Assembly (NCBI GenBank): GCA_964390495.1
Contig: CAYMIN010000009.1
Location: 6,155 to 70,154 of the forward strand
Reading direction: 5' to 3'
DNA: 64,000 nucleotides
Origin: an uncultured Armatimonadia bacterium
Lineage (GTDB): Bacteria > Armatimonadota > Zipacnadia > Zipacnadales > UBA11051
Position 1 is the stretch's first letter; each line of letters opens with the position of its first letter. This document shows positions 2,114-20,412 of the stretch, piece after piece. The position numbers were made by a program, and so were the translations under genes. Below the pieces are notes generated by a model. It was given only the letters and a program-made list of their open reading frames with translations, was not told the origin of the DNA and did no database searches.

Positions 2114-2142
2114 TGGGTACTACATCCCAACGACCACATCCC

Positions 2143-2210
2143 CGACTGCCGCGTGGCTCGGGCTTCCAGCCCGAGGCCGTGCGCAGACGCTAGCGTCGGC
2201 GTGAGAGGAT
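2143..2210 (+). repeat. conserved ~67-nt leader element upstream of E1 alpha, related to the TTCCAGCCCGA repeat family
   Basis: Near-identical to 3206-3272 (actgccgcg..gggc.t.ccagcccgaggc.gtgcgcagacg...cgtcggc.tgagagga). Hairpin ctcgggc-ttcca-gcccgag. Palindrome GACGCTAGCGTC. Confidence 0.6.
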
Positions 2211-2224
2211 AATTCAAAGGAACC

Positions 2225-3196
2225 ATGAAACCGACTGAAGAGCAAATGAAAGCAATGCTGCGGACGATGCTAACCATCCGCGGCTTCGAGGCGACCGCCC
2301 GCGCGCTCTATACGGCTAACTGGGAGAGCGGCAACTTTTTGGGCGCGCTGCATTCTTACGAAGGCCAGGAGGCCGTCGCCACCGGCGCGTGCGCCTGCCT
2401 GAGGCAGGACGACTATGTCTTCAGCACCCATCGCGGCCACGGGCACTTCATCGCCAAGGGTGGGGACATCAAGGCAATGTTCGCCGAGCTACTCGGCAAG
2501 GAAGCCGGCTGCAGCCGCGGGCGCGGCGGCTCGATGCACATGTTCGACCCCGGAAAAGGTCTGATGGGCGGCAACGGCATTGTGGGCGGCGGGATTCCCC
2601 TGGCCCTCGGACCCGCCTTCGCCGCCAACTACCTAGGTAGTGACCAGGTCACCGTCACCTTCTTCGGTGACGGCGCCTCCAGCCAGGGCGTATTTCATGA
2701 GTCGTTCAACTTGGCGGCGCTCTGGGACCTGCCCTTGATCTTCGTCTGCGAGAACAACCGCTATGCCGTGGGTACGCCGGCCTCTCAAGGCATTTCGGTG
2801 CCTAACCTATCGGTTCGCGCCGCCGGCTACGGCTGCCCTGGAGTGACGGTGGATGGCGACGACCCGGTGGCCGTCTATGAGGCGGTCAGTGAGGCCATCG
2901 CCCACGCCCGCGCAGGTAACGGCCCCAGCCTCGTCGAGGCCGTGACCCACCGGCATAGCACACACTGTATGGTTATGCGCGAAACTCGCGAAGAGCCGGA
3001 ACTGGACAAAATGAAGGAGTATGACCCCATCCCCCGCTTCGAGCAGCGCCTGCAGGAAAGCGGCATCATCGGGGCCGACGAACTGACGCAACTCAAAGAG
3101 GAAGTGAGCCAACTCATCGAGGCGGCCGTGGCCTTCGCTGAAAACGCCGCCTTCCCTGATCCTGCGACGGTGGCCGATGGTCTGTGGGTAGGCTAG
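2225..3196 (+). CDS. 2-oxoacid (pyruvate/acetoin-type) dehydrogenase E1 component alpha subunit, TPP-dependent
   Basis: E1 alpha motifs HRGHGH, GGNGIVGGGIPLALG and FFGDGASSQG. AAAGGA RBS 4-9 nt upstream of the ATG. Confidence 0.85.
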   Translation: MKPTEEQMKAMLRTMLTIRGFEATARALYTANWESGNFLGALHSYEGQEAVATGACACLRQDDYVFSTHRGHGHFIAKGGDIKAMFAELLGKEAGCSRGRGGSMHMFDPGKGLMGGNGIVGGGIPLALGPAFAANYLGSDQVTVTFFGDGASSQGVFHESFNLAALWDLPLIFVCENNRYAVGTPASQGISVPNLSVRAAGYGCPGVTVDGDDPVAVYEAVSEAIAHARAGNGPSLVEAVTHRHSTHCMVMRETREEPELDKMKEYDPIPRFEQRLQESGIIGADELTQLKEEVSQLIEAAVAFAENAAFPDPATVADGLWVG

Positions 3197-3205
3197 GCGG
3201 GGCCC

Positions 3206-3272
3206 GAACTGCCGCGCACCCGGGCCTGCCAGCCCGAGGCAGTGCGCAGACGACATCGTCGGCATGAGAGGA
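3206..3272 (+). repeat. second copy of the conserved leader element, upstream of E1 beta
   Basis: Aligns to 2143-2210. Palindrome GACGA-CA-TCGTC carries compensatory changes relative to copy 1. Confidence 0.6.
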
Positions 3273-4259
3273 GAACTTAGAGCATTGGCAAAGACGCGAC
3301 AGGTTGTGTTCGCCCGAGCGCTCAATGAGGCGCTCCGTGAGGAGTTCGAGCGCGATGACAGCGTCTTCCTGGTCGGCGAGGAGGTCGGCGGGATCTTTGG
3401 TGTCACCAGGGGTCTGGACCGGCGCTTTGGTGAAAAGCGGGTGCGCTGCACCCCGATCTCGGAGGCGGCCTTCACCGGACTGGCCGTCGGCGCGGCGATG
3501 GTCGGCCTCCGGCCCATCGTCGAGATCATGTACCTCGACTTCGTCACCGTTTGCTGGGACCAGATCGCCAACCAGGCGGCCAAGCTGCGGTATATGTCCG
3601 GCGGCCAGATCAGCCTGCCCCTGGTAATTCGCGGCCAGCAGGGCAACCTCACCCGCGAGGCCGCCCAACATTCCCAACAGATCGAGGGCTGGTGCGCCCA
3701 AGTACCGGGGCTCAAGGTCGTGATGCCGGCCACCGTCGAGGACGCCAAGGGCCTCCTCAAGTCTGCCATTAGGGATGACAATCCGGTCATATTCGTCGAG
3801 CATCGCGGCCTCTATGACCTCAAGGGGCCTATGCCCAAAGGCGAGTACACCACCCCGCTCGGTGTGGCCAAGGTCCACCGCGAAGGCACCGATATCACCG
3901 TTGTCGCCACATCCCTAGCCTTGCAGAAGGCACTGGCAGCGGCGGAAGCCCTCGCCGATGAGATCAGCGTGGAGGTGGTGGACCCGCGCACACTGGTGCC
4001 GCTAGATACGGAGACGATTCTGCAATCGGTACGCAAGACCGGCCGGCTGCTGGTGGCTCACGACGCCCCGGTGCGGCTGGGCTTCGGAGCCGAAGTCGTG
4101 CGCGCGGTTACCGAAGAGGCCTTCGCAGCTCTGCAGACAGCACCTCGTGTAGTCGGCGGAACCAATCTGCCGATGCCGTATAGCTCGGTGCTGGAGGACG
4201 CTTGCATCCCCAGCGAAGATGACATCACACAAGCTATCCGACAGGTGGTGAAGAGTTAG
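3264..4259 (+). CDS. 2-oxoacid dehydrogenase E1 component beta subunit
   Basis: E1 beta / transketolase-like pyrimidine and C-terminal domains (ALNEAL.EE, FLVGEEVG ... ). Start ambiguous: ATG at 3264 or in-frame TTG at 3285, with GAGAGGAG RBS at ~3266-3273. The aminotransferase start abuts the stop codon. Confidence 0.8.
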   Translation: MRGELRALAKTRQVVFARALNEALREEFERDDSVFLVGEEVGGIFGVTRGLDRRFGEKRVRCTPISEAAFTGLAVGAAMVGLRPIVEIMYLDFVTVCWDQIANQAAKLRYMSGGQISLPLVIRGQQGNLTREAAQHSQQIEGWCAQVPGLKVVMPATVEDAKGLLKSAIRDDNPVIFVEHRGLYDLKGPMPKGEYTTPLGVAKVHREGTDITVVATSLALQKALAAAEALADEISVEVVDPRTLVPLDTETILQSVRKTGRLLVAHDAPVRLGFGAEVVRAVTEEAFAALQTAPRVVGGTNLPMPYSSVLEDACIPSEDDITQAIRQVVKS

Positions 4260-5618
4260 ATGAGAAGCCATGATGAGTTGGTGGAGGCGGCTCGCAAGCA
4301 CGTCTGGCTGCATTTCGCGCATTACGACGATATTGAGAAGCGGCCTAAGATCTTCGTGCGCGGCGAGGGGATGTATCTATGGGACGATGAGGGCAACAAG
4401 TACCTGGATACCTTCGCCTCGCTGCTGACTACTATCTGCGGCCATCACCGCCCCGAAGTGCATGAAGCGGTGCAGAAGCAGATGGAGCAGCTTGAGTTCT
4501 TCCCGAATTACCATGATTGCTACACCATCCCCTCCATCGAGCTGGCCGAGAAGTTGGCCGAGATCATGCCGGGCGACCTCTCTGTCGCTTTCTTCACGGG
4601 CGGCGGCTCGGAAGCCAACGAAAGCGCTATGAAGATGGCCCGCCAGTACTTCTGGGAGCAGGGCCAGCGCTCCCGCACCGGCATCCTGGCCAAACGTTTC
4701 AGCTACACCGGCGCTACTATGGGCACGATGTCGGCCACCGGTATCCCCTGGTTCTGGGAGACCTTCCAGCCGCGCATGCCCGGCTACGGCTTTTTCAACC
4801 CGGAATGGTACTACCATCGCGAGCTGGGCCTCGCTGAGGAGCAAGCCGGCAAGATCGCCCTGCAAGACCTGGAGGAACTCGTGGAGTTTGAGGGGCCGGA
4901 ATCTATTGCCGCCTTGATTATGGATCCGGTTTCCGGCTCCAACACCGGCTATTGGGTGCCCTCGGCCGCCTTCATGCAGGGCGTCCGCGAGCTATGTGAC
5001 AAACACGGCATCCTCTTGATCTTCGACGAAATCCAAGTCGGCTTCGGCAAGAGCGGCAAATGGTTCTGCTGCGAGCACTGGGACGTGGTGCCCGACATCA
5101 TGACCCTGGGCAAGGGCTTCTCCGGCGGCTATCTACCTCTCGCAGCGGCGGTAACCACCCAGAAGATCGCCGAGGTCTTCCGCAAGCCTGATGCGGAGTT
5201 CCGCCACGGCTTCACCTTCGGCGGCCATACCACCGCGTGCGCCGCAACTTTGGCCAATATCGAGATTATCGAGCGCGAAAACCTCGTGGACAGGGCCGCC
5301 GAGATGGGTACCTACCTGCGCGAAAAGCTGGAGGCGCTATACAAGTACCCCATCGTCGGCCACGTGCGCGGCATCGGCCTGCTGCTGGCCCTTGAGCTAC
5401 TCGAGGACCGCAAGACCTGGAAGAAGCTGGAGCCGGAAGGCGAGATCGGCGCCTGGGTGCGCGACCGCTGCTACGAGCTGGGCATGATCCTGCGCAACAA
5501 CGACGACATCTTGGTCTTTGCACCCTCCTTGACCATCACCAAAGACGAAGTTGACTACATGGTCGGCCTCACCGAGCAAGCGCTCGCAGAGGCGTGTGAG
5601 AAGTTCGGCAAAGGTTAG
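4260..5618 (+). CDS. class-III (omega-type) PLP-dependent aminotransferase
   Basis: LWDDEGNKYLD and FDEIQVGFGKSG motifs, with the PLP-lysine region (TLGKG). Confidence 0.8.
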   Translation: MRSHDELVEAARKHVWLHFAHYDDIEKRPKIFVRGEGMYLWDDEGNKYLDTFASLLTTICGHHRPEVHEAVQKQMEQLEFFPNYHDCYTIPSIELAEKLAEIMPGDLSVAFFTGGGSEANESAMKMARQYFWEQGQRSRTGILAKRFSYTGATMGTMSATGIPWFWETFQPRMPGYGFFNPEWYYHRELGLAEEQAGKIALQDLEELVEFEGPESIAALIMDPVSGSNTGYWVPSAAFMQGVRELCDKHGILLIFDEIQVGFGKSGKWFCCEHWDVVPDIMTLGKGFSGGYLPLAAAVTTQKIAEVFRKPDAEFRHGFTFGGHTTACAATLANIEIIERENLVDRAAEMGTYLREKLEALYKYPIVGHVRGIGLLLALELLEDRKTWKKLEPEGEIGAWVRDRCYELGMILRNNDDILVFAPSLTITKDEVDYMVGLTEQALAEACEKFGKG

Positions 5619-5625
5619 GGAGAAG

Positions 5626-6669
5626 ATGGCATACCCCACGGTTCTGCAGGACGTACAGACTTGCATTGACCTCGGCGTGCCCTCCCGGGTGCCGATTTTC
5701 CTCCTGGGTGAGGAGTTCGATGTCGAGCAGTATGATATTGACTATCGCACCTACATCACCAGCCCGGAGGATATGGTCAACTGCTGGGTGCAGGCCGTCG
5801 CGCGCTTCGACTATGACTGGATTCTGCTGCATCCCGACGACTACATCGAGTTCGAGCCGTTGGGCCTTGTGACGGCGGCAGATGAAAAGATCCCGCCATC
5901 GCCCATCGAGGAGTTGCCTGCAGATTACGACACTCTTAACAGCCTGGAAATACCCGATGCCCACAGCGCCGGGCGAATGCCGCATCATCTGGCCGGCCTG
6001 CAAGGCATCAAGGAGGCGATGGGCGACAGCATCTGCCTCGCGGGTCGCGTGGCGGCACCGTTCAGCTCGGTGTGCCTGCTTTACGGGGTGCAGGAAGCGC
6101 TGATGCTGATGATGACCGATCCGCAACTGTTCCGCGATACGGCCGAGTTCATGGCCGAATTGATGGTCTATTGGGCGCACGAGCAGATCAAGGCCGGCGC
6201 CGACGCCTTGTGGGTCGGGGATTGTGTGGCCTCATCGGGGTTCTTGTCGCCTGCGCACTACGAGGAGTTCGCCATGGCCGGAGCCGGCCGGGTCTGCGAT
6301 GCCATCAAAGACGCCGGCGCATGGGCGATCTACCACGGTGGCGAGCCCTCTCTGCCCCACCTCCAACTGGCGGCTCAGTTCCAGCCGAGTATGCTCAATG
6401 TGGGCGAAGACCTTGACCTGGCGGTCGCCAAACAAGCCCTAGGCGACCAAGTCTGTCTGTCCGGCAACCTCAACCCGATTCAGCTCTTCGAGGCCAAAGA
6501 CCTTGCACTGGTAGCAGAGGAGACGCTTCGAGTTATCGAGGCCGGCAAGCCGGGCGGCGGATATATCTTCAACAGCGGTGAGGGCGTGCCTCGGCAGACT
6601 GACCCCGAGATCATCGCCACGATGATGCAGGTGGCAAAGGAGCACTGCTGGTACGACCAGCAGGACTGA
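5626..6669 (+). CDS. uroporphyrinogen-decarboxylase (URO-D) family protein, MtaA/CmuA-like methylcobamide methyltransferase candidate
   Basis: URO-D fold signature spread over the length. Start placed at the ATG with an AGGGAGAAG RBS (MAYPTV...); the longer track ORF start is unlikely. Confidence 0.6.
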   Translation: MAYPTVLQDVQTCIDLGVPSRVPIFLLGEEFDVEQYDIDYRTYITSPEDMVNCWVQAVARFDYDWILLHPDDYIEFEPLGLVTAADEKIPPSPIEELPADYDTLNSLEIPDAHSAGRMPHHLAGLQGIKEAMGDSICLAGRVAAPFSSVCLLYGVQEALMLMMTDPQLFRDTAEFMAELMVYWAHEQIKAGADALWVGDCVASSGFLSPAHYEEFAMAGAGRVCDAIKDAGAWAIYHGGEPSLPHLQLAAQFQPSMLNVGEDLDLAVAKQALGDQVCLSGNLNPIQLFEAKDLALVAEETLRVIEAGKPGGGYIFNSGEGVPRQTDPEIIATMMQVAKEHCWYDQQD

Positions 6670-6674
6670 GTGAA

Positions 6675-7754
6675 ATGCAGCAGCACAAGGATACGCTAAA
6701 CTGCGCTGTCGTCGGCTATGGCCGCTATCACGACTTCGGGCGGATGCACTGCCGCTGGATCAGCGCCTGCCAGGAACTCAACCTGGTCGCCGTTTGTGAT
6801 ATGGACCCACAGGCCCGCCAACGCGCCGGCGGCGATTTTCCCGATGCGCGCCTTTATGCTTCGGTCGCTGAGATGCTCGCCGATGACGACATTGACATGG
6901 TCAGCGTCGTCACTCCCCATTTCACCCATACCGAAATCGCCACCGACTGCTTGCGGGCCGGCAAGCATGTAATCGTCGAAAAAGCGATGGCTACTAGCGT
7001 AGCCGACTGTACGGCCATGATTGAGGCCGCCGAGCGCGCCGGCCGCAAGCTGGCGGTATTTCACAATCGGCGCCATGACGGCAACTACCGCGCCATTCAG
7101 CGAGTAATCGCCGATGGCACCATCGGTGAGGTGTTCCACGTCGAGTGCTCGGAGGAAAGCTACACCGAGCCGCAGCAGTGGTGGTATTCCGAGCCCGACA
7201 AGTCCGGCGGGGCGCTGTTCTACTGGGGCCCTCATGCGGTGGACTGGGTGCTACACCTGGTGCCGTCGAGGGTGGCCCGGGTCGTCGGCGCCACCCAGAG
7301 GCGCGTCTGGTCACACGTGGACATCGCCGACGAGGTGCGCGCCTATCTCTGGTTTGAGAACGACGCGACCGCCACTATCACCTTCTCCCGCATCGCCGCC
7401 ATCCGCAAGCCTTTGTGGCGGATACTGGGCACCAAGGGTGGCATCGAGGATTCCAAGGTCGGCGTCTGCGAGGGCAACTACATCCCCCATTACCAGGAGC
7501 TGCTGGTGGGCGATGCCGGTGAAGGCCAGATCCGTGTGGTGACTGTGGATGGCGAGGAGAAAAGCGAGACTCTGGTTGACTATCTGGCCTCGGATTGGCT
7601 GACGTATTACCAGGACATGGCCGCCGCGGTCTTGCGCGATCAGCCGCTCCCGGTCACGGGAGAAGAGGGACGCATGACGGTGGCGGTCATGGCTGCGGCG
7701 CAGGAGTCGGGCGACCAAGGCGGAGTCATCATCGAGATGAGTGACTATGAGTGA
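6675..7754 (+). CDS. Gfo/Idh/MocA family NAD(P)-dependent oxidoreductase
   Basis: N-terminal Rossmann VVGYGR..., conserved EKPMA-like motif (VEKAMA), and a C-terminal alpha/beta domain. Confidence 0.8.
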   Translation: MQQHKDTLNCAVVGYGRYHDFGRMHCRWISACQELNLVAVCDMDPQARQRAGGDFPDARLYASVAEMLADDDIDMVSVVTPHFTHTEIATDCLRAGKHVIVEKAMATSVADCTAMIEAAERAGRKLAVFHNRRHDGNYRAIQRVIADGTIGEVFHVECSEESYTEPQQWWYSEPDKSGGALFYWGPHAVDWVLHLVPSRVARVVGATQRRVWSHVDIADEVRAYLWFENDATATITFSRIAAIRKPLWRILGTKGGIEDSKVGVCEGNYIPHYQELLVGDAGEGQIRVVTVDGEEKSETLVDYLASDWLTYYQDMAAAVLRDQPLPVTGEEGRMTVAVMAAAQESGDQGGVIIEMSDYE

Positions 7755-8034
7755 CAGCGCCGACGATGTTACGGTGCTGATCCCGGAGCCGCTGCGGGTC
7801 TACACCAACGGACACGCGCAGGTGAGCGTGCCGGCCGGCACCGTCGGTGAGGTGCTGTACCAGCTTGTCACCCGCTACCAGGAGATCGGGGCGCAGATAA
7901 TTGACGAAGCCGGCGTTCTGCGACATGGCGTGACAGTTGCAGTCAACGGCCAGGACATCCGCTTCGTCGGGCACCTCCAAGCTCCCGTGCGGCCCGGCGA
8001 GCAACTCCAGATCGTGGTGACGATGCTGGTCTAG
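7747..8034 (+). CDS. MoaD/CysO/ThiS-like beta-grasp protein lacking the C-terminal Gly-Gly
   Basis: The whole length aligns to long-form MoaD/CysO proteins (VTV.IP..LR.YT.G...V.V...TV.EVL..L...Y..., VAVNG.DIRF). It ends ...QIVVTMLV* instead of ...GG*. The start overlaps the upstream stop. Confidence 0.5.
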   Translation: MSDSADDVTVLIPEPLRVYTNGHAQVSVPAGTVGEVLYQLVTRYQEIGAQIIDEAGVLRHGVTVAVNGQDIRFVGHLQAPVRPGEQLQIVVTMLV

Positions 8035-8101: not shown

Positions 8102-9253
8102 ATGCGTGTAAGGCGCCTCATCATAGCGATATGGGTATTGGTATTGCTTTTCAGTGCCACCGCGGTGCTGGCCAGGCAGTGGTCTGAGCAGCGCGAGCAG
8201 GCCGTCGGTGCCGAAGTTGCCGAGCAGATCGAGAAGCAGTACAAGCTCTGGGAGGACGAGGCGAGCCAGAAGCAGGTCGAGGAAATCCTAGCCGAATTGG
8301 TGCCACACACCGACCGCCCGGATGTTGAGTATCTGGTGAAACTGCTGGACAGTGATGAGGTCAATGCCTGCAGCATACCCGGCGGCCGCATCTACGTGCA
8401 CCGAGGACTGATCGAGGAAGTCGAGTCCGTTGACGAGCTGGCCGCGGTAATGGCCCACGAGATTGCCCACAACTGCACTTATGACGCCATGGACCAGGCC
8501 GAGCGCAACCAGAAGCTATTCATCGGCGGGATCACGGCGGCGCTGGTGGCGATATTCGTCGGAGCCGACAGTAGCGAAATATCCGGCGTTCTGGCCGCCG
8601 GCTCGTATGTGCGCCAGGGGATTCTCAGCCGGTATTCCATTGACATGGAGCAGCGCGCTGACCTCAACGCCATCCGCTATCTGGCGGCTAGCAAGTACAA
8701 CCCCACCGGCCTGCTGACCTTTATGGAGCGGCTGCTGGCCCAGACCTACAAGACGGCGCGCCCCGACTACGGGATCTATGAGACCCACCCCCAGGCCACG
8801 GAGCGCTGCGCATATATCATCCAGGCCATCTATGACGCGGGGTTCGACATCAATCGGCGTGCGGTAACTAAGTGGGACCCGCCCAGCTTTGAGAGCATCG
8901 GCCCTGAAGAAACGCAGATAGACCGCCAAACAGCGCCGGCCAAGATATCACTGTGGGGCGAAGAGCTGGTCACCCTATACTATGCCGGCGAATATCCGGG
9001 CATTGACAAGCGCGCCGAGGCCATCTGCAAGCACCTCACGGAAGCGCTCGCGGCGGGCCTGGTGCTGTACCAGATAGACACTGCTGAGACTGACGGAACC
9101 TCTACGATCACGCTGCGGGGTCAGCCGATGATGAAAATCTATCCCGAGGACGTGCAATCAGAAGCAAGCTCACCCCAGGCTGTGGCCGACGGCATCGTCA
9201 GGGCGCTGGCCAGAGCCATGCACCGGGAGGAGCTGGCGCGGCGGTATCACTAG
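8102..9253 (+). CDS. membrane-anchored M48-family zinc metallopeptidase
   Basis: HEIAHN (HEXXH) and a downstream ETHPqatER motif. N-terminal hydrophobic anchor. GGAG RBS. Stop is immediately followed by the start of the lipoyl protein. Confidence 0.75.
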   Translation: MRVRRLIIAIWVLVLLFSATAVLARQWSEQREQAVGAEVAEQIEKQYKLWEDEASQKQVEEILAELVPHTDRPDVEYLVKLLDSDEVNACSIPGGRIYVHRGLIEEVESVDELAAVMAHEIAHNCTYDAMDQAERNQKLFIGGITAALVAIFVGADSSEISGVLAAGSYVRQGILSRYSIDMEQRADLNAIRYLAASKYNPTGLLTFMERLLAQTYKTARPDYGIYETHPQATERCAYIIQAIYDAGFDINRRAVTKWDPPSFESIGPEETQIDRQTAPAKISLWGEELVTLYYAGEYPGIDKRAEAICKHLTEALAAGLVLYQIDTAETDGTSTITLRGQPMMKIYPEDVQSEASSPQAVADGIVRALARAMHREELARRYH

Positions 9254-9760
9254 ATGGGCCAGCGCATCACCATCGAGAAGTGGGCCGAGAACCTCGAAGA
9301 AGTCACCCTTGCCCGCTGGCTGAAGGCCGAGGGCGACCACATCGTTGCCGGCGAAGTGCTGTGCGAGATCATCACCGATAAGGCCACCTTCGAGTACACC
9401 GCTGAGCAAGCCGGCACAATCGTCAGGATCTACGCCGCCGAGCGCAGTACCGTACCCGTCGGCTATATCATAGCCTTCCTCGCCACTGCCGGCGAGCAGC
9501 CGGACCCCGACATCGAGACCCACAATGAGAAGCTGCTTGCCGATAACCAACAGCAGGCGCAACTGGACCTCGACGATATTCTCTCAGCCGCCGGTGGAAA
9601 ACCTGCTCGACCGCGCGCAACCGCGGCCGCACGACGGCTGGCGCGCCAACTTCAGATTGACCTGCAGCAGGTCGCCGACTGGCTCAGTCCGCCCACCGAA
9701 CTGATTACCGAAGACCACGTGCAAGCATACTTGAGCGACAAAGGGAGCAGCGGTGATTGA
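9254..9760 (+). CDS. stand-alone lipoyl-attachment domain + peripheral-subunit (E3/E1) binding domain protein; E2 without a catalytic acyltransferase domain
   Basis: Lipoyl-lysine motif [11 protein letters not shown]. Ala/Pro-rich linker, then a PSBD-like segment [19 protein letters not shown]. Only 168 aa, with no CAT-like catalytic core (no DHRxxDG). Confidence 0.75.
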
Positions 9761-10499
9761 CCTAAGCGGCAAAGTGGCGCTGGTGACGGGTGGCTCGCGA
9801 GGCTTGGGCCGGGCCATCGCGGTACAGCTCGCCGAAGCCGGCGCGGAGGTTGCGGTCAATTACCTGCAGAACGCCGCAGCGGCTGAAGAGACCGGTCGCC
9901 TCATCACCGAATACGGACGCCGCTGCATTCTCTGCCAGGCGGACGTGAGCGACCGCGAGGCCGTCAAGGCGATGGTCGAGCAGGTTTCCCAGGAATTGGG
10001 CGGGCCGGATATCCTAGTCAACAACGCCGGCATCATCAGCGACCAGTTCCTCGCCTTCATGAAGCCGGAGCAGTGGGAGAGCGTCATTGCCACCTCCCTG
10101 ACCGGCGCCTTCAACTGCTGCCAGGCGGCCATGCGGCCGATGCTGAAAAAGCGCTGGGGTCGCATCGTCAATATCGCCTCTGATGCCGGCTTGATGGGCG
10201 ACTTGCGGCGCACCAACTACGCCGCCGCCAAGGGTGGTTTGATCGCCTTCACTAAGGCGCTGGCGCGTGAGGTTGTCGCCCAGGGCATTGTCGTCAATGC
10301 GGTGGCGCCGGGTGTCATCGAGACCGACCTGATCGCTGAGATGACCGACAAGCAGCGCGAGCAGATGTGCCAATTGATCCCAGCCGGTCGGTTCGGGCGG
10401 CCTGAAGAGGTCGCTCCCCTCGTGGCATTTCTGTGCTCGCAGCATGCCAATTACATCACCGGCCAGGTCCTCAGCGTTGACGGCGGCCTCCGCATGTAG
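9753..10499 (+). CDS. fabG: 3-oxoacyl-[ACP] reductase-like short-chain dehydrogenase (FabG family)
   Basis: GTG start with a [20 protein letters not shown] and NNAG motifs, YAAAK catalytic YxxxK. 8-bp overlap with the upstream gene. Confidence 0.8.
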
Positions 10500-10526: not shown

Positions 10527-10555
10527 TTGCAAAGCCCACCTGAATCGTTTATATT
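10527..10555 (+). promoter_or_regulatory. sigma-70-like promoter candidate (TTGCAA-17 bp-TATATT) for the DUF47-pitA-fabF-KS-like-E1alpha transcript
   Basis: Hexamers read directly, with 17-nt spacing, inside the 213-bp gap upstream of the DUF47 gene. Confidence 0.45.
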
Positions 10556-10712: not shown

Positions 10713-11378
10713 ATGCCGGGGCGGAACCGTTTTCTTGACGGCCTGCAGCGGGTCATGCGTGCCTTCGCGCCGAGCGAAGAGAACTTCTTTGAGCTGTTCG
10801 AGGCTCTGGGCGACAAGGCCCTGGCGGCCGCCGAGTGCCTCGACGATGTCATGCAGAGGTTCCACCGTTTGCCGCTAGCTGTAGAGAGAATCGAGGACAT
10901 CGAGCACGAGGCCGACGAGATCGTCCACGAGGTAGTCAGGCGGCTCAACACCACCTTCGTCACCCCCGCCTTGTTCGACCGCGAGGACATCTACCGCGTT
11001 GCCGAACGCCTCGACGACATCATTGACCAAACCAAAGGCGCCATTGACCGCCTACAGCTTTTCAAGATTGAGAAGCCCACCGACAGGTGCAAAGAGCTGG
11101 TGAAAATCTTCGTGCAAGCGGCAGAGTGTCTGCAGAGCAACATGCACAACCTGGCCGGGCTCAAACCCACAGACTGCGAATACGTTGCCGAGGTCAACAC
11201 TCTGGAGAACCAGGCTGATGTGGTCAACCGGGCGGCCATGAGCGAGCTGTTCCAGTACGAAGGCGACCCCCGTCAGATCATGAAATGGCTGCAGATTTAC
11301 CAATTCATCGAAGAGGCGATTGATAGCTGCGAGGCGGCAGTCAATTTCGTCGAGGCAGTGGTGGTGAAGAATGCCTGA
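10713..11378 (+). CDS. DUF47 family protein (PhoU-like putative phosphate-transport regulator)
   Basis: Helical PhoU-like sequence. Conserved pairing with, and 8-bp overlap of, the downstream PiT transporter. Confidence 0.7.
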   Translation: MPGRNRFLDGLQRVMRAFAPSEENFFELFEALGDKALAAAECLDDVMQRFHRLPLAVERIEDIEHEADEIVHEVVRRLNTTFVTPALFDREDIYRVAERLDDIIDQTKGAIDRLQLFKIEKPTDRCKELVKIFVQAAECLQSNMHNLAGLKPTDCEYVAEVNTLENQADVVNRAAMSELFQYEGDPRQIMKWLQIYQFIEEAIDSCEAAVNFVEAVVVKNA

Positions 11379-12405
11379 CCTGCCGATCTGGGTCTGGGTG
11401 ACCGTCGCGGTGGCCCTGACCTTCGACTTCATGAACGGATTTCACGATACGGCCAACGCGATTGCCACTTCCGTGCTTACCCGGGCCTTGAGTATCCGTC
11501 AGGCGATTGTGTTCGCATCAGGCCTCAATTTCCTGGGTGCGGTGGTAAGCGTCAGGGTCGCCGCAACCATTGGCAAGGGCATCGTGGACCCGGCCGATAC
11601 CTCGCATACGGTAGTGCTGGCCGCTTTGCTCGGGGGCATTACTTGGCTGCTCATCACCTGGTATCTGGGCTTGCCGACGAGTTGCTCTCACGCTCTCGTT
11701 GGCGGAGTGATTGGAGCTGTACTGGCTGACCATACGACCCTTCAGGCCGGTGGCGGCATGCTGGGCTGGGGTGTTAACTACGGTGTGCTACAATACGCGG
11801 GGCTGACCAAGATATTCGTGTCTCTGCTACTGTCCCCGATATTCGGTGTGATCGTCGGTGTCGCGCTGATGATTACTCTGTTGCACATCTTCGGCCACTG
11901 CGCCCCGGCGGCGCTCAACCGCCATTTCAAGCGTTTCCAGATCATGTCCGCAGGCTTTATGGCCTTCAGCCACGGCTCCAACGACGCCCAGCAAGTCATG
12001 GGCATCATCACTCTTACACTGGTTGCGAGCGGAGCTCTAGGCACCTTTATAGTCCCCTTCTGGGTCAAGGTGTGCTCGGCCACTGCTATGGCTCTGGGCA
12101 CGGCCGCCGGCGGCTGGCGGATCATTAAAACAGTCGGCCGCAAGGTGATGGAACTGAAGCCGATCCACGGTTTTGCCGCCGAGACGGCTGCAGCCTCAGT
12201 CATCCAGTTCGCGACGCACTTCGGCGCTCCGGTCAGCACCACTCACGTCATCTCCACCGCCATAATGGGCGTGGGCCTATCTCACCGACTCACGGCGGTG
12301 AGATGGGGCGTAGTGGGGCAGATCGTCGGCGCTTGGATACTGACGCTCCCGATGTCTATGTTCTTCGGCGCGCTGGCTCACTGGATAATCCACAACTGGC
12401 TGTAA
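11371..12405 (+). CDS. pitA: PiT-family inorganic anion (phosphate/sulfate) transporter
   Basis: N-terminal FDFMNGFHDTANAIATSV and a repeated C-terminal GSNDAQ-type motif. Confidence 0.85.
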   Translation: MPDLPIWVWVTVAVALTFDFMNGFHDTANAIATSVLTRALSIRQAIVFASGLNFLGAVVSVRVAATIGKGIVDPADTSHTVVLAALLGGITWLLITWYLGLPTSCSHALVGGVIGAVLADHTTLQAGGGMLGWGVNYGVLQYAGLTKIFVSLLLSPIFGVIVGVALMITLLHIFGHCAPAALNRHFKRFQIMSAGFMAFSHGSNDAQQVMGIITLTLVASGALGTFIVPFWVKVCSATAMALGTAAGGWRIIKTVGRKVMELKPIHGFAAETAAASVIQFATHFGAPVSTTHVISTAIMGVGLSHRLTAVRWGVVGQIVGAWILTLPMSMFFGALAHWIIHNWL

Positions 12406-12428: not shown

Positions 12429-13655
12429 ATGCAGGCCAGGCTGTACCATGTTGCCATAACCGGGCTCGGGGTCGTCAGCCCTTTGGGCAGCGGCGCCAGT
12501 ACCCTCTGGGAGGGTTTGCTGGCCGGCTGTCGCGGTCTCACTAGCCTGACCAAATTCGACCCCACCGGCCTGCGCAACCAGAAGGCCGGCCAGGTTAATG
12601 ACTGGCAATTCGACCCCGCTGAATATGGCCTCCAGCAAGCGCCTGACGAGGCCACCCAGTTTCTGCTCGCTGCGGCGCACGAGGCGGTCGCCGATGCCGG
12701 TCTCGATGACCGTTTGCACCCAGGCGCGGAGCCTGTCGCGCAGGCAGGGGCAGTGCTGGGGACCAACTTCGGCGGCGCTGCTTCGTGGGAGAGCTACATC
12801 AACGGAGTACTGGTCGGCCGGCCCTCACCCACGGCTTTCGAGCAATTTAGCTTCCACGAGGCGCTATCCCTGCTATCCAGCAGCTTCGCCCTCAGTGGCC
12901 CCTGCAGCCAGCTCTCCATGGCCTGCGCCTCCGGAACTGCCGCTATCGGCTACGGAGCCGAGCTGATACGAACCGGCCAGGCCGAGCTGGTGCTGGTCGG
13001 CGGCTACGATGCCCTGGCTCCCAGTATTCTCAGCGGGCTAAGCCTACTCCGCACCATGACCGATGACGACCTCTATCCGTTTTCGGCCAACCGCAGTGGG
13101 ACCCTTTTCGGTGAGGGCGCGGGCGTGCTGGTGCTGGAGAACCTGCAGCGCGCCCACCAACGCCGCGTGCGCTGCTACGGCGAAGTCTTGGGGGCGTGGC
13201 AGAACAACAATGCTTACCACCTGACCGCCCCCGATGCCGGCGGTGCCGGTATGGCACGAGCCTTGCGGGGAGCGCTGCAGGTAGCGGGAATTGCCCCTGA
13301 GGACCTGGATCACATCAACGCCCACGGCACCGGGACAGAGTACCACGATGTGGCCGAGACCGAGGCGATCAAGGCCGTCCTCGGCCCGGCCGCTTACGAC
13401 ATAACCGTGGTGTCCATAAAGGGGGCTATCTCGCATCTGATGGGGGCAGCCGGGGCCGTCGAGGGTGTTGTGACAGCTCTAGCGCTCTTCCATCAGATGG
13501 TGCCGCCTACCACCAATTACGGCGATCCGGACCCGGCCTGTGACCTGGACTACGTTACCACCGGCGCGCGCCGCCAGCCTATCAAACACGCGGCCTCGCT
13601 CTCAGCCGGCATCGGCGGCGATAACGCGTGTGTGGTCCTGGGCCGGCTTATCTAG
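12429..13655 (+). CDS. fabF: beta-ketoacyl-[ACP] synthase II-like condensing enzyme (intact Cys-His-His triad)
   Basis: Active-site Cys in SMACASGTA, HGTGT present (INAHGTGTEYHD), and second His in SIKGAISHLMGAAG. Confidence 0.85.
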   Translation: MQARLYHVAITGLGVVSPLGSGASTLWEGLLAGCRGLTSLTKFDPTGLRNQKAGQVNDWQFDPAEYGLQQAPDEATQFLLAAAHEAVADAGLDDRLHPGAEPVAQAGAVLGTNFGGAASWESYINGVLVGRPSPTAFEQFSFHEALSLLSSSFALSGPCSQLSMACASGTAAIGYGAELIRTGQAELVLVGGYDALAPSILSGLSLLRTMTDDDLYPFSANRSGTLFGEGAGVLVLENLQRAHQRRVRCYGEVLGAWQNNNAYHLTAPDAGGAGMARALRGALQVAGIAPEDLDHINAHGTGTEYHDVAETEAIKAVLGPAAYDITVVSIKGAISHLMGAAGAVEGVVTALALFHQMVPPTTNYGDPDPACDLDYVTTGARRQPIKHAASLSAGIGGDNACVVLGRLI

Positions 13656-13794: not shown

Positions 13795-14799
13795 GTGAAA
13801 AACGCATCGTCTCAAAACCAGCGCATAGTCATCAGCGGAGCCGCACCGATTGCCTCCGTCGGCATCGGGCGCGAGGACTTCTTAGAGGGCCTGCGCGAAA
13901 ACCGCGCGGGCCTCGGCGCCTCGCAACGCCTGACTGATGCCGGCGGCTTCGCACAGGTGGCGGAGTGCCGCGACTTTGTGGTCGAGGACTATCTGGAGAG
14001 CAAGAAGACCTACCTCGACCGCTGCTCGGAGCTGGCGCTGGCGGCTGCGGCCCTGGCCTTCGCGGACGCCGGACTGGTCTGGTCGGAACTGGATGGCGAG
14101 CGGATCGGCCTATGCCTGGGCACCGCCTACGGCTGTCTCGAATCCATGACCAATCACACAGCGCGGGTGCAGGCCAAGGGCTTGCGTTTCGGCTCGCCGA
14201 TGATCTTCACCCACACAATGCCCAACTCACCCACGGCGCTGGTGGCCATCGAGTACGGTATCCACGGGCCGGCTGGGACCTTTTGCGCCGGCAGCATAGC
14301 GGCGGCCTGTGCGCTGGAGTTCGCCCTGCGCCGCCTCAAGAGCGGAGATGCCGACTTTGTACTGGCCGGCGGCTGTGAGGCACTGAGTGTCGCGCTGCTT
14401 GGCGGCCTGGGCGGCCCCGAGCGACTCGGGCCGGATTTCGTACCGGGTGAGGGCGCCTGCCTATTCGTCCTGGAGCGCATGCACACGGCAGCGGCCAGAG
14501 GTGCTGAGATGCTAGCCGAGATCGCCGCTGTCGGTCTGGCGGTGGCTACCGAAGCCAATCCCGACGCCGCTCTGGACGCCGCGTGCGCGCAAGCCGCTCT
14601 GACCGACAGGCCCGCGATATTCGCCCCGCCCGCCGCATACGGCCACACCTTCGGCACCTCAGTGGCTCTGGACATTTGTGCGGCACTCGGTAGTTTGAAA
14701 TCGGATGCGAGCTGCGATTGCATCGCCATAACCGGCCGCAGCGGCCTTACCGGCACTCATGCGCCGGCCGCTGCTGTCATCATCCGGAGCCTAACATGA
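13795..14799 (+). CDS. degenerate ketosynthase-like protein (KS partner/CLF-like); retains GHxxG His region but lacks the HGTGT motif
   Basis: KS N-terminal RIVISGAAPIASVGIG. Possible Cys in GPAGTFCAGS. No HGTGT, with ~25 residues missing before AAYGHTFGTS. 334 aa versus 408 aa for the FabF-like neighbour. Stop overlaps the start of the E1 alpha paralog. Confidence 0.65.
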   Translation: MKNASSQNQRIVISGAAPIASVGIGREDFLEGLRENRAGLGASQRLTDAGGFAQVAECRDFVVEDYLESKKTYLDRCSELALAAAALAFADAGLVWSELDGERIGLCLGTAYGCLESMTNHTARVQAKGLRFGSPMIFTHTMPNSPTALVAIEYGIHGPAGTFCAGSIAAACALEFALRRLKSGDADFVLAGGCEALSVALLGGLGGPERLGPDFVPGEGACLFVLERMHTAAARGAEMLAEIAAVGLAVATEANPDAALDAACAQAALTDRPAIFAPPAAYGHTFGTSVALDICAALGSLKSDASCDCIAITGRSGLTGTHAPAAAVIIRSLT

Positions 14800-15776
14800 G
14801 CTATCCAGCCAAGGAGTTAATCGCCCATTATCGGCTGATGGTCACCATCAGGGAGTTTGAGGAGGCTCTGGATGACCTCTTCAGTCAGGGACTAATCACC
14901 GGCACCGCGCACTTCTGCCGAGGCCAGGAAGCCTGTGCGGTGGGAGCCGTCGCGGCGCTGGAAGCCTCTGATTTGGTGACATCGAATCATCGCGGGCACG
15001 GCCATTTCATCGCCAAAGGCGCGGAACCGGGGCGGCTGATGGCTGAGCTGATGGGCAAGCGGGCCGGCTATTCCGGCGGGCGCGGCGGCTCCCAGCACAT
15101 GGCTGCCTTTGACCTCGGCTTCCTGGGCTCCAACGGAATAACTGCCGGTATGATACCGATCGCGACCGGGGCCGCAATGACCCAGAAGCTCAAGCAGACC
15201 GGCCGCGTCGTACTATGCTTCTTCGGCGACGGGGCTTGCGCTCAGGGCGCCTTTCACGAGGCGATCAACATGGGGGCGCTCTGGGAGCTGCCTATCGTCT
15301 ATTTCCTTGAGAACAATCTCTACGCAATGAGCACGCATGTCGGCGAGAATTTCAAGATCACGGAGCTCGTGCAGTTCGCTGACGCATACGGTCTGGCGGG
15401 GGTCAGCGTTGATGGCAATGACTACTTCGCAGTGCGAGCGACGGTCACTGAGGCTGTGAGCCTGGCCCGCTCCGGAGCCGGGCCGACGCTCATCGAGGCC
15501 CGCACCTACCGCATGTGCGGACACTCCAAGAGCGATGACTGCGAATACCGGTCTGATGAAGAAGAGCGAACCTGGGCGGCCCGGGACCCGCTGCTAGTCA
15601 TGAAAAGCCGGCTCATTGCCGACAGCATTATGGATGAAGCGACGGCGGCAGCAGCCGAGCAGCGAGCTGCCGACGATGTTGCAACGGCGATTGAGTTCGC
15701 CCGCCAAGCATCCGAACCTGACCCTGATACGCTCACCGAGGGGCTTTTCGCTGCTTCATACCTCAAGGCTCGGTAG
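14796..15776 (+). CDS. second 2-oxoacid dehydrogenase E1 alpha subunit paralog (TPP-dependent)
   Basis: HRGHGHFIAKG, GSNGITAGMIPIATG and FFGDGACAQG motifs. ATGA overlap with the KS-like gene. No cognate beta subunit downstream. Confidence 0.8.
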   Translation: MSYPAKELIAHYRLMVTIREFEEALDDLFSQGLITGTAHFCRGQEACAVGAVAALEASDLVTSNHRGHGHFIAKGAEPGRLMAELMGKRAGYSGGRGGSQHMAAFDLGFLGSNGITAGMIPIATGAAMTQKLKQTGRVVLCFFGDGACAQGAFHEAINMGALWELPIVYFLENNLYAMSTHVGENFKITELVQFADAYGLAGVSVDGNDYFAVRATVTEAVSLARSGAGPTLIEARTYRMCGHSKSDDCEYRSDEEERTWAARDPLLVMKSRLIADSIMDEATAAAAEQRAADDVATAIEFARQASEPDPDTLTEGLFAASYLKAR

Positions 15777-20408: not shown

Positions 20409-20412
20409 CTTC

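Follow-up and report, generated by a model that had tools for sequence, protein, structure and literature searches.

A stand-alone lipoyl–PSBD protein encoded beside FabG, a ketosynthase pair, and a PDH-type E1 in an Armatimonadia genome

Genes at the locus and the didomain protein

The window analyzed here, a stretch of 64,000 nucleotides from an uncultured Armatimonadia bacterium, carries a short gene for a protein composed of a lipoyl domain and a PSBD, the domain type described by the Pfam E3_binding model. It is followed directly by a FabG-type ketoreductase gene and, farther on, by genes for two ketosynthase homologs and a PDH-type E1alpha. The relevant features are listed in window coordinates.

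345-2113, split transketolase, upstream of the cluster
3285..4259, + strand, E1beta, the sole one in the window (PRK09212, 372 bits, above the 321 cut-off)
8102..9253, + strand, M48 metallopeptidase (Pfam Peptidase_M48, 1.7e-26)
9254..9760, + strand, stand-alone lipoyl–PSBD didomain protein, 168 aa (Pfam, NCBIfam, family alignment, profile versus PDB, AlphaFold2, Foldseek)
9254-9487, + strand, lipoyl domain of the didomain protein, residues 1-78
9380-9382, + strand, lipoyl-lysine of the didomain protein, K43
9509-9589, + strand, long helix of the didomain protein, residues 86-112 (predicted)
9614-9748, + strand, PSBD of the didomain protein, residues 121-165
9753..10499, + strand, FabG-like 3-oxoacyl-ACP reductase, SDR, 248 aa, GTG start (TIGR01830, synteny, fusions)
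10713..12405, + strand, DUF47/PhoU_div and PHO4 phosphate transporter, between fabG and KSa (Pfam)
12429..13655, + strand, KSa, FabF-like ketosynthase (Pfam ketoacyl-synt N and C domains)
13795..14799, + strand, KSb, shortened ketosynthase homolog of 334 aa, predicted CLF-like partner of KSa (only the N-terminal KS domain detected by Pfam)
14796..15776, + strand, E1alpha of the PDH type, ortholog of the cluster-associated E1alpha (Pfam E1_dh, 8.3e-79)

The didomain ORF starts with ATG, and the same ORF was found in an independent public gene call. Its lipoyl domain is matched by Pfam Biotin_lipoyl over residues 14-74 (E = 4.8e-13) and, in NCBIfam, by the N-terminal parts of E2 models (4e-19 to 3e-10) and no other E2 part, with the N-terminus of the acetoin-dehydrogenase E2 (AcoC) as the best match. 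A biotinyl domain, the competing assignment raised in the preliminary description, was rejected, as the motif is TDKA with no MKM and the biotin carriers in the same scan reached only 0.09 or worse against 4e-19 for the E2 models. Pfam GCV_H (PF01597) did not match the protein at E <= 0.01. In the family alignment, K43 is unchanged in 35/35 homologs and is among 12 invariant columns.

The PSBD is weak by Pfam E3_binding in the window protein (19.4 bits against a cut-off of 23.7), and many didomain homologs exceed that cut-off. When the family profile was compared with the PDB, it covered the lipoyl domain and PSBD of PDH E2s from end to end (9y7v_D, 3.5e-40; 3duf_I, residues 1-168) and also matched isolated PSBD structures at 1e-8 to 1e-4 (1w4i at 1.4e-8, 2coo, 1zwv, and 4qoy). 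The two N-terminal Arg residues of the PSBD motif ARRLAR, R127 and R128, are kept at >=90% in the alignment; the classical PSBD “electrozipper” has a third Arg, carried on a GTG..GR loop, and neither of these is conserved in the family. The AlphaFold2 model has a mean pLDDT of 93, with a beta-barrel at residues 1-78 and PSBD helices at 124-132, 137-143, and 153-165, so that only three residues follow the last helix. Foldseek aligned the model to lipoyl domains at 1.1-1.3 Å rmsd, the best of them from E2s. The preliminary description had proposed a lipoyl domain and an E3-binding domain joined by an Ala/Pro linker. Profile searches and the model bear out the two domains, but for most of the linker the model predicts, with confidence, one long helix (residues 86-112) with an invariant Asn91 and only short proline-containing segments on either side. 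Read from sequence and model together, the protein is a natural “E2 didomain,” a lipoyl swinging arm plus a PSBD with neither a catalytic nor a scaffolding core, and it is predicted to be lipoylated.

The gene has close neighbors on both sides. As first described, its stop codon (TGA 9758-9760) overlaps the GTG start of fabG at 9753; the overlap is 8 nt, and FabG is near-canonical (297.7 bits against the TIGR01830 cut-off of 297.75). The proposed coupling to the M48 peptidase holds in part: the M48 stop codon (TAG 9251-9253) abuts the didomain ATG, but M48 is a neighbor in only nine loci, all of them close relatives, and lies outside the conserved unit, and we rejected the peptidase as a general functional partner on this account. 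The DUF47/PhoU_div and PHO4 insertion is likewise restricted to the closest relatives and outside that unit. E1alpha overlaps the KSb stop by 4 nt, and no E1beta gene comes next in the window lineage, where E1beta, ACP, and the glycosyltransferase extension found elsewhere are all non-adjacent and the phosphate-transporter pair interrupts the cluster. The only E1beta of the window pairs with a paralogous E1alpha at 2225-3196; it may also serve the E1alpha at 14796, which is an orphan. A scan for promoters and terminators gave counts at chance level and was uninformative.

Search for an E2 core, E3, and ACP

According to the preliminary description, the protein stops without an acyltransferase (CAT-fold) domain, and the window encodes no full-length E2 and no E3. 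Several searches agree. Pfam found no CAT-fold catalytic/core domain (PF00198) on the didomain protein, and neither 2-oxoacid_dh nor Pyr_redox among the other window ORFs that it scanned. In tblastn, probes for the E2 catalytic domain and for E3 gave nothing credible in the 64-kb window or in 84 related loci; the E2 probe was validated by its detection of the core in about 30 full-length E2s. Neither an E2 core nor an E3 was found within about 10 kb in any of about 90 loci (tblastn, Pfam-annotated loci). One weak E2-probe match at 20364-20498 (E = 5e-4, 53 aa) was judged spurious, as it runs antisense to ORFs of 151 and 331 aa at 19953-21408. The overlap with fabG leaves no room for an out-of-frame E2 core downstream, and a frameshift was rejected on this ground and on the negative tblastn result.

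No ACP was found in the window with two tblastn probes. Two small ORFs were considered as hidden ACPs and rejected: one at 7747-8034 is ThiS-like, and an 88-aa ORF between the didomain gene and fabG in a related locus (L001) appears to encode a short hydrophobic, probably membrane, peptide and had no Pfam match.

In the textbook picture, lipoyl swinging arms belong to giant complexes built on an E2 core, and the product is acyl-CoA. The didomain protein has the TDKA-lysine lipoyl domain and the ARRLAR PSBD in the same order as PDH/BCKDH E2s and the recombinant lipoyl–PSBD didomain studied with Geobacillus stearothermophilus E1 (PDB 3DUF, 1W85), and in part of its family PDH-type E1alpha/beta genes share the operon. 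However, it lacks the CAT-fold core and so would be expected neither to transfer acyl groups to CoA nor to form a 24/60-mer scaffold. The flexible Ala/Pro linker of the E2s is replaced by the predicted helix, no E3 gene is adjacent, and FabG and KS/CLF stand as partners where E2 and E3 would be. Eukaryotic PDH E3BP (protein X; 1zy8_K matched at 2.4e-16) also combines a lipoyl and an E3-binding domain with no acyltransferase activity, but it still has an inner core domain, non-catalytic, by which it inserts into the E2 core, whereas the didomain protein ends after the PSBD.

Conservation of the cluster and its active sites

Stand-alone didomain proteins are widespread. Among the top 150 profile matches, didomain-only proteins of <=250 aa account for at least 86 clusters at 50% identity, drawn from the lineages named below, and lengths of 160-180 aa are found in nearly all of the 120 best database clusters. 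The lineages represented are Armatimonadota, Planctomycetota (including Brocadiia), Lentisphaerae, Kiritimatiellia, and Verrucomicrobiota. Fusions to FabG occur in five clusters (P0244, P0337, P0338, P0339, and P0346) spanning 41-83% identity. Fusions to holo-ACP synthase are recurrent, in lineages only 44% identical to each other, and there the synthase has a housekeeping context. A further protein, P0333, combines lipoyl domain, PSBD, and alpha/beta-hydrolase, and the family profile also found a PSBD match in a hydrolase in the PDB (7qjm_A).

Synteny was compared over 80 genome loci from five or more phyla, with counts taken over 84 loci; in high-GC loci, ORFs were called with a GC-frame-scored caller and cross-checked against public gene calls. 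FabG adjoins the didomain gene in 67/84 loci. The collinear order didomain–FabG–KSa–KSb–E1alpha(–E1beta) was present in about 27 of the about 50 loci with enough flanking sequence to be informative, and E1beta follows E1alpha in 14 loci apart from that of the window; the E1beta of our window is 42-50% identical to the E1beta in those 14. Adjacency to KS and E1 is not obligatory, as 12 loci have only the didomain gene and fabG and eight the didomain gene alone. Brocadiia loci keep the didomain gene, KSa, KSb, GT2, and ACP even when FabG and E1 are missing. The operons are tight: adjoining core genes overlap or are spaced by 0-8 nt (independent gene calls and Pfam). Some loci extend to GT2, ACP, two hydrolases, GT4, and MurJ or an Lnt-like protein. 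For example, one locus (L091) reads GT4, a didomain–ketoreductase (LD-PSBD-KR) fusion, KS, KS', E1a, E1b, GT2, ACP, hydrolase, hydrolase, GT4, and MurJ, and a second (L092) is laid out similarly. ACP genes were found in about 10 related loci; most clusters, including that of the window, have no adjacent ACP. Beside the ACP, two hydrolases occur in about 5-7 loci and match TIGR03101 (4.7e-30) and TIGR03100 (1.1e-39) with scores under the family cut-offs. The Pfam-annotated loci contained no lipoate ligase or lipoate synthase genes.

The ketosynthases differ in their active sites. KSa has an intact Cys166-His299-His336 triad and Lys331, all invariant in 23/23 orthologs. It scores 326 bits with the fabF model, below the cut-off of 494, and 232 bits with AmcF, and its best PDB match is 9s5h_B, which we tentatively take to be the anammox heterodimer amxFabF2/amxFabFmut. 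In KSb, the active-site Cys is replaced in 23/23 orthologs (by Ser in the window) and the first His is mostly deleted. A triad-bearing ketosynthase beside a Cys-less homolog fits a KS/CLF-like module, with the heterodimer itself predicted. E1alpha scores best with PDH E1alpha models (342 bits with TIGR03182, below its cut-off of 394) and shares 50-67% identity with cluster E1alphas from other phyla versus 40% with the other E1alpha of the window. Its ThDP motif is conserved, as is the His of the GHS motif, presumably the catalytic loop His. From these comparisons, the conserved module is a PDH-type E1alpha/beta, the didomain protein, a predicted KS/CLF-like ketosynthase heterodimer, and a FabG-type ketoreductase, to which many genomes add a dedicated ACP. 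The component machinery is known already; what is new is the genomic context of the core-less arm, with FabG, KS/CLF, and E1. In the literature searched, we found no description of a lipoyl–ketosynthase system or of a stand-alone lipoyl–PSBD system.

Possible routes for the acyl group

The reading we favor, tentatively and with slightly less than even confidence, is that E1 loads an acyl group onto the core-less arm and that the group enters ACP-based synthesis at the KS/CLF pair. The comparisons above show which domains the protein has, that an E2 core is missing, that synteny is conserved, that fusions exist, and which active-site residues KSa and KSb keep; the steps of the route itself are our inference. 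The PSBD would dock the didomain protein on E1beta and on an E3 encoded elsewhere. E1 would then decarboxylate a 2-oxo acid and reductively acylate the lipoyl-lysine; because of the similarity of the E1, the substrate would most likely be pyruvate, giving acetyl. Since no E2 acyltransferase is present, the S-acyl-dihydrolipoyl arm would pass its group on to ACP-based synthesis, and the simplest way would be transthioesterification to the active-site Cys in KSa. KSa/KSb would condense it with malonyl-ACP, the adjacent FabG would reduce the 3-oxoacyl-ACP to 3-hydroxyacyl-ACP, and E3 would re-oxidize the dihydrolipoyl arm. The preliminary description had speculated that another acceptor, such as a condensing enzyme, takes the acyl group. 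The collinear FabG, KS/CLF, and E1 genes in several phyla and the fusions to FabG and holo-ACP synthase lend this idea real support by comparison, but the direct hand-off from lipoyl to ketosynthase would still be a step beyond them. KS/CLF pairs can self-prime by malonyl-ACP decarboxylation, in which case an E1 that supplies acetyl would be superfluous, except where the starter is something other than acetate. The boldest reading, that the didomain protein is a second, non-phosphopantetheine carrier of a hybrid synthase from which the KS/CLF pair takes the unit directly, requiring neither a CoA thioester nor E2 catalysis, seems only slightly less likely when all forms of direct lipoyl-to-KS transfer are taken together.

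Parts of this route have precedents. In the glycolyl-ACP supply systems QncN/QncL/QncM (quinocarcin) and SclQ1-4 (scleric acid), a lipoyl arm is charged by a ThDP enzyme, and ACP, not CoA, finally carries the acyl unit (PMC6335953); our window also carries a split transketolase upstream of the cluster. However, QncL and SclQ4 keep an E2-type acyltransferase catalytic domain (PMC6335953) that the didomain protein does not have, so the known case of lipoyl-to-ACP transfer argues against a direct hand-off, and Qnc feeds an NRPS whereas the didomain gene sits with KS/CLF and a ketoreductase. The KS pair resembles those of type II PKSs and the anammox amxFabF2/amxFabFmut heterodimer in that the KSa triad is intact and the KSb triad lost. 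The anammox heterodimer initiates synthesis by making acetoacetyl-ACP, a precedent for KS/CLF-like FabF heterodimers in FAS-type initiation (bioRxiv 10.64898/2026.05.19.726425). Those pairs have no E1 or lipoyl partner, whereas here the KS pair is collinear with the didomain and E1alpha/beta genes. We rejected the anammox ladderane cluster as the same system, as it has radical-SAM genes, amxACP, and FabZ, has no lipoyl or E1 genes, and shares the KS/CLF logic alone.

Alternatively, the arm may depend on a separate acyltransferase, either a split E2 core encoded elsewhere or an alpha/beta-hydrolase pair like hydr1_PEP and hydr2_PEP, that moves the acyl group from lipoyl to CoA or ACP. We regard this as unlikely, if still a serious contender. 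Acyl-CoA or acyl-ACP would then be a conventional substrate for the KS/CLF pair, and the hydrolases would resemble the hydrolase-fold domain of AcoC-type E2s. AcoC joins a lipoyl domain to an alpha/beta-hydrolase fold, and its standing as the best NCBIfam match favors this explanation, although no hydrolase is fused to the didomain protein itself. In actinobacterial OdhA there is precedent for lipoyl and catalytic parts sitting on separate proteins. Proteins that join a PSBD to an alpha/beta-hydrolase exist (P0333 and 7qjm_A), the two hydrolases adjoin ACP where they occur, and QncL hands its acyl unit to ACP via its catalytic domain (PMC6335953). However, the window and most clusters have no hydrolases of the hydr1_PEP/hydr2_PEP kind. 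The genes of canonical E1-E2-E3 sets usually stand side by side, and the lack of an E2 core near any of the about 90 loci weighs against a split complex. Furthermore, published work describes Zipacnadia relatives as anaerobic, with PFOR as their enzyme for pyruvate (PMC10290634).

It is quite improbable, in our estimate, that the protein serves mainly as an E1/E3-binding adaptor or as a lipoate-assembly relay that carries octanoyl or lipoyl groups, with octanoate from ACP, like GcvH in the Bacillus LipM-LipL pathway. The link to FabG, AcpS, and KS/CLF would then reflect octanoyl-ACP supply rather than acyl delivery to a ketosynthase. Fusions to a holo-ACP synthase of housekeeping context and adjacency to a near-canonical FabG do tie the protein to ACP and fatty-acid synthesis generally, loci with only the didomain gene and fabG or the didomain gene alone exist, and a CLF-like subunit could set a short chain such as C8. 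Known relay proteins have the GcvH fold and are not known to carry a PSBD, whereas the didomain protein gave no GCV_H match and its PSBD is conserved family-wide. The presence of E1alpha/beta in the same operon points to the protein as an E1 substrate, and the annotated loci lack genes for lipoate ligase or synthase.

Much less probable still is a lipoyl domain that replaces ACP, so that KS/CLF and FabG act on lipoyl-tethered intermediates and E1 might even convert oxaloacetate to malonyl-lipoyl and so sidestep acetyl-CoA carboxylase. The didomain gene occupies the usual ACP position beside fabG and fabF, most clusters have no adjacent ACP, and several lineages fuse the didomain to the ketoreductase. 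Such chemistry is without precedent, however, and the fullest clusters have dedicated ACPs. FabG is almost canonical, keeping one of the two ACP-binding Arg residues of E. coli FabG, and the holo-ACP synthase fusions imply the involvement of a genuine ACP. Finally, the ORF might be what decay or mis-assembly has left of an E2 gene in a normal PDH operon, whether truncated, frameshifted, or a pseudogene, as the PDH-like E1 genes and the loss of an adjacent E1beta in the window lineage might hint. This possibility is effectively refuted by a length of 160-180 aa common to hundreds of homologs in several phyla, the 12 invariant columns with the lipoyl-lysine, the confident model, the fabG overlap that leaves no space for a core, and an identical protein on eight independently assembled contigs.

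To return to the favored reading, acyl delivery from the arm to the KS/CLF pair, the fuller clusters of other genomes hint at where its product may go. The genes that come next there encode GT2, ACP, a pair of exosortase-type hydrolases, GT4, and either MurJ or an Lnt-like protein, and for this reason the product probably acylates a cell-envelope glycoconjugate. With their ACP, hydr2_PEP-like and hydr1_PEP-like hydrolases, and glycosyltransferases, these clusters resemble the exosortase-A-associated ACP/hydrolase-1/hydrolase-2 cassette.

The didomain family departs from the textbook in two ways: the arm persists without its core, and synteny and fusion tie it to a ketoreductase, KS/CLF, E1, and the ACP-activating enzyme. 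That its gene belongs to a fatty-acid/polyketide-type gene set, or is fused to members of one, in five or more phyla of bacteria suggests an undescribed feed of 2-oxo-acid carbon into acyl-chain synthesis. If this is true, 2-oxo-acid decarboxylation would plug directly into ACP-based chain synthesis, giving type II FAS/PKS-like systems a new priming logic and explaining the orphan PDH-type E1 genes of PFOR-using anaerobes. A set of five or six proteins would then provide CoA-independent starter-unit supply, with possible use in pathway engineering, and in the extreme, malonyl-lipoyl form, carbon entry would be independent of both acetyl-CoA and acetyl-CoA carboxylase. For poorly studied phyla such as Armatimonadota and those of the PVC group, the clusters may point to an uncharacterized acyl decoration of envelope glycoconjugates.

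Domain architecture and the missing core

The gene under study encodes a stand-alone protein of 168 aa (9254-9760, + strand), and an independent public gene call on the identical sequence returned the same ORF. Residues 14-74 match Pfam Biotin_lipoyl (4.8e-13). The NCBIfam matches of this domain are solely the N-terminal thirds of E2 subunits (4e-19 to 3e-10), whereas biotin-carrier models score 0.09 or worse. Together with the TDKA motif, whose Lys43 (9380-9382) never varies among 35 aligned homologues, this settles the choice between a lipoyl and a biotinyl domain in favor of the former, as the preliminary description had it. GcvH and BCCP were also considered and rejected, the first for its fold and the second for its motif.

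The Pfam E3_binding match of the window protein is below threshold (19.4 versus 23.7 bits). A family profile spans the lipoyl domain and PSBD of PDH E2 chains end to end (9y7v_D, 3.5e-40), aligns with 3duf_I over residues 1-168, and matches the isolated PSBD structures 1w4i (1.4e-8), 2coo, 1zwv, and 4qoy; by profile comparison, the C-terminal domain is a PSBD. The AlphaFold2 model, made from the family alignment (mean pLDDT 93), has a beta-barrel (1-78), a long helix (86-112), and three short helices within 124-165, and in Foldseek, the barrel matches E2 lipoyl domains with an rmsd of 1.1-1.3 A. All of these sources bear out the initial reading of a stand-alone lipoyl and PSBD protein, except in one detail. 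The Ala/Pro linker that had been proposed, a flexible element in canonical E2s, consists here mostly of a long helix, predicted with high confidence at residues 86-112 (window 9509-9589), in which Asn91 is invariant. This helix might be a docking or oligomerization element that replaces the absent E2 core.

The stop codon of the M48 peptidase gene (9251-9253) directly abuts the didomain ATG, and the GTG of fabG (9753) overlaps its TGA (9758-9760), boundaries that had been placed correctly from the start. The overlap of fabG with the final codons of the didomain gene leaves no space for a catalytic domain in another frame. Probing by tblastn with the E. coli SucB catalytic domain and E. coli Lpd gave nothing credible for an E2 core or an E3 in the 64-kb window or in 84 related loci. 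The SucB probe picks up the core in approximately 30 full-length E2 proteins, which makes the negative result for the core meaningful. Pfam scans of the other window ORFs, covering the small ones in part, found neither a 2-oxoacid_dh nor a pyridine-nucleotide-disulfide oxidoreductase domain, in agreement with the original claim that the window has no full-length E2 and no E3. No ACP was detectable in the window.

Almost every one of the top 120 database clusters measures 160-180 aa and has the same two domains. When 1.84 billion representatives were searched exhaustively with a profile, 86 of the best 150 matches were didomain-only proteins of at most 250 aa. Judged from these sequences, the short length is a family trait. 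The protein lacks the catalytic core that defines an E2 as well as the inner core domain of an E3BP, and is predicted to act like the lipoyl-PSBD didomain that biochemists excise from E2. No curated family exists for such proteins, and PGAP labels homologues "biotin/lipoyl-containing protein" or "E3 binding domain-containing protein", nothing more specific.

A gene cluster and gene fusions across phyla

We compared 80 loci from species-representative genomes, all MAGs, of Armatimonadota (including Ca. Zipacnadia and "WS1"), Planctomycetota (including Brocadiia), Lentisphaerae, Kiritimatiellia, and Verrucomicrobiota. When the window proteins were mapped onto these loci, a collinear unit emerged, made up of the didomain gene (LIP), a FabG-like reductase, the ketosynthase KSa, its short homologue KSb, E1alpha, and E1beta.

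Gene arrangements at related loci
FabG adjoining LIP: 67 of 84 loci
Full LIP-FabG-KSa-KSb-E1alpha order: approximately 27 loci with enough downstream sequence
LIP-FabG only: 12 loci with at least 6 kb of downstream sequence
LIP alone: 8 loci with at least 5.9 kb of downstream sequence
LIP-KSa-KSb-GT2-ACP, without FabG or E1: 3 loci (Brocadiia)
E1beta immediately after E1alpha: 14 loci
E1alpha without adjacent E1beta: 13 loci, the window lineage among them

In locus L091, the order is GT4, LD-PSBD-KR, KS, KS (N-terminal domain only), E1alpha, E1beta, GT2, ACP, two alpha/beta-hydrolases, GT4, and MurJ, with core intergenic gaps or overlaps of 0-8 nt (public gene calls and Pfam). Locus L092 resembles it and ends with an Lnt-like acyltransferase; in both Pfam-annotated loci, the cluster is a tight operon. 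The L091-type hydrolases resemble exosortase-A-associated hydrolase 2 (4.7e-30) and hydrolase 1 (1.1e-39), both under the family cut-offs, and the nearest family of the cluster ACP is AmcB. The extension of the cluster by GT2, AmcB-like ACP, hydr2_PEP-like and hydr1_PEP-like hydrolases, GT4, and MurJ, or an Lnt-like N-acyltransferase, covers L091 15491-21281 and L092 5587-10096, and such an extension is also present in L018, L030, L040, L046, L055, L076, L068, L081, and L084. Its gene content suggests a cassette that adds acyl groups to an envelope glycoconjugate and is akin to the ACP/hydrolase set associated with exosortase A.

Other settings were also seen. One Planctomycetota lineage (L003, 9109-12060) has a lone didomain gene between KdsA-like DAHP_synth_1 and LptD_N/LptC-like genes, with LPS-related neighbors and with FabG, KS, and E1 all absent. 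Eight loci labelled Lentisphaerae, Kiritimatiellia, Verrucomicrobiota, or other MAGs (L063, L070, L073, L074, L075, L077, L079, L082) carry a gene for a giant protein (approximately 1,700-2,040 aa) directly upstream; the single one inspected, from L063, has a signal-peptide-like N-terminus.

LD-PSBD-FabG fusions fall into five clusters with a mutual identity of just 41-83% (P0244, P0337, P0338, P0339, and P0346, the last from a Rhodothermales MAG), and two such fusions stand at the head of the complete clusters L091 and L092. Fusions to holo-ACP synthase form two lineages that are 44% identical (P0200, P0270, and P0271 versus P0273 and P0274) and occur among housekeeping genes: CoaE and YjeF_N are the neighbors in L089, GlmS in L090. 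The recurrence of the fusions in divergent sequences makes an origin in assembly errors unlikely, and the two independent types physically link the didomain to ACP-based synthesis. Helix 86-112 is missing from P0244-type fusions.

All 23 KSa orthologues keep Cys-His-His and Lys. None of the 23 KSb orthologues retains the Cys, which has given way to Asp, Phe, Ser, Ala, Met, or Trp, and 14 of them lack the segment with the first His. This residue pattern is the sequence signature of a KS/CLF heterodimer. KSa scores 326 bits against the fabF model (cut-off 494), also resembles AmcF of cispentacin biosynthesis, and has 9s5h_B as its top PDB match. A comparable FabF heterodimer of anammox bacteria produces acetoacetyl-ACP (bioRxiv 10.64898/2026.05.19.726425). 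At 297.7 bits against TIGR01830 (cut-off 297.75), the window FabG is consequently a near-canonical 3-oxoacyl-ACP reductase. E1alpha scores highest as PDH E1alpha (342 bits, under the 394 cut-off) and retains both the ThDP motif and, within the GHS motif, the conserved His. The cluster-orthologous E1alpha (14796-15776) is 50-67% identical to cluster E1alpha across phyla, and its paralogue at 2225-3196 is 40% identical to it.

Lineage-specific surroundings in the window

Coupling to M48, as first suggested, holds as adjacency in the window but not as a general feature: M48, the DUF47/PHO4 pair, and the upstream transketolase, E1, aminotransferase, URO-D, and GFO genes are shared with the closest relatives only.

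Window genes around the cluster (those within 1-8034 form the upstream run)
Start of window, +, MTTB-family methyltransferase, 3' end
345-1190 and 1187-2113, +, split transketolase
2225-3196 and 3285-4259, +, second PDH-type E1alpha/E1beta pair
4260-5618, +, class-III aminotransferase
5626-6669, +, URO-D-family protein
6675-7754, +, GFO/IDH/MocA oxidoreductase
7747-8034, +, ThiS-like 95-aa ORF
10713-12405, DUF47/PhoU_div and PHO4 phosphate-transporter pair, between fabG and KSa
26890-27627, GT2
27778-29109, DegT-type sugar aminotransferase
55483-56763, GT4

The split transketolase recalls QncN/QncL-N, which perform glycolyl loading of a lipoyl arm, so the didomain might have several ThDP enzymes as partners in the window. 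A weak promoter-like site lies at 10527-10555. The gene after the E1alpha of the window cluster is not E1beta and encodes a 1277-aa secreted protein with PKD and CarboxypepD_reg domains (15936-19769), with no homologue in the related loci first compared. Envelope-related genes, including LytR-CpsA-Psr, follow downstream (19953-29109 and 55483-56763) and may correspond, in scattered form in this lineage, to the glycosyltransferase extension found elsewhere. Two ORFs among them (19953-21408), one of 151 aa and a membrane one of 331 aa, have by eye the appearance of a BlaI/BlaR-type regulator pair. Three aldo/keto reductase paralogues stand in tandem at 42881-46356, with a Pta/Ptb-family phosphate acyltransferase on the opposite strand (46504-47445).

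A proposed route from E1 to the ketosynthase

The comparative evidence argues strongly for a functional link between the didomain, E1, KS/CLF, and FabG, which we regard as highly probable. The complete mechanism, in which an E1-loaded core-less arm feeds KS/CLF, is more tentative and falls just short of an even chance. It builds on the observed architecture, missing core, synteny, fusions, and catalytic-residue status of KSa and KSb. Through the PSBD, the lipoyl arm would dock on E1beta as well as on an E3 whose gene lies elsewhere, and E1 would reductively acylate Lys43-lipoate from a 2-oxo acid, probably pyruvate by E1 similarity. The KS/CLF pair would be the point at which the acyl group enters ACP chemistry, and the simplest way in would be transthioesterification to KSa Cys166; condensation with malonyl-ACP and reduction by FabG would then yield 3-hydroxyacyl-ACP. 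In fuller clusters, this product is probably attached to a lipid-linked glycan or glycolipid. The hand-off is chemically plausible: SNAC esters and acyl-CoA are among the small thioesters that ketosynthases take, and S-acyl-dihydrolipoamide, carried on a flexible arm, is a thioester of comparable kind. The preliminary description had speculated on a non-CoA acceptor, for example a condensing enzyme; the link to E1, KS/CLF, and FabG now has comparative backing, while the acceptor step itself is one that we infer.

Ca. Zipacnadia, the source of many loci, is described as an anaerobic fermenter that handles pyruvate via PFOR (PMC10290634), which makes a classical PDH role less likely. In function, the closest parallel is QncN/QncL/QncM (SclQ1-4), a system in which a lipoyl arm charged by a ThDP enzyme delivers glycolyl to an ACP (PMC6335953); there, however, transfer is done by an E2-type catalytic domain, which the didomain lacks.

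A separate acyltransferase, be it an E2 core elsewhere in the genome or a hydrolase pair acting like the alpha/beta-hydrolase domain of an AcoC-type E2, is unlikely but deserves some weight. The AcoC model is the top NCBIfam match of the lipoyl domain (AcoC-type E2s join a lipoyl domain to an alpha/beta-hydrolase fold), an LD-PSBD-hydrolase protein is known (P0333), and 7qjm is a hydrolase with a PSBD match, but hydrolases are absent from most clusters and from the window. It is doubtful that the didomain is a lipoate relay or adaptor: octanoyl-ACP supply would account for the FabG and AcpS links but would leave the conserved PSBD and the operonic E1 unexplained. Most exotic, and very improbable, is a lipoyl domain serving as an ACP surrogate, including malonyl-lipoyl made from oxaloacetate. 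That the ORF is a decayed E2 gene is excluded by the conservation data, and we give it next to no credence.

The literature that we searched, with incomplete coverage, holds no account of a ketosynthase-coupled lipoyl didomain; because of that coverage, this absence is weak evidence of novelty. Direct testing of the E1-to-ketosynthase route is feasible with five or six soluble proteins. The system is widespread, and it is unexpected for specialists of 2-oxo-acid dehydrogenases and of type II synthases alike.
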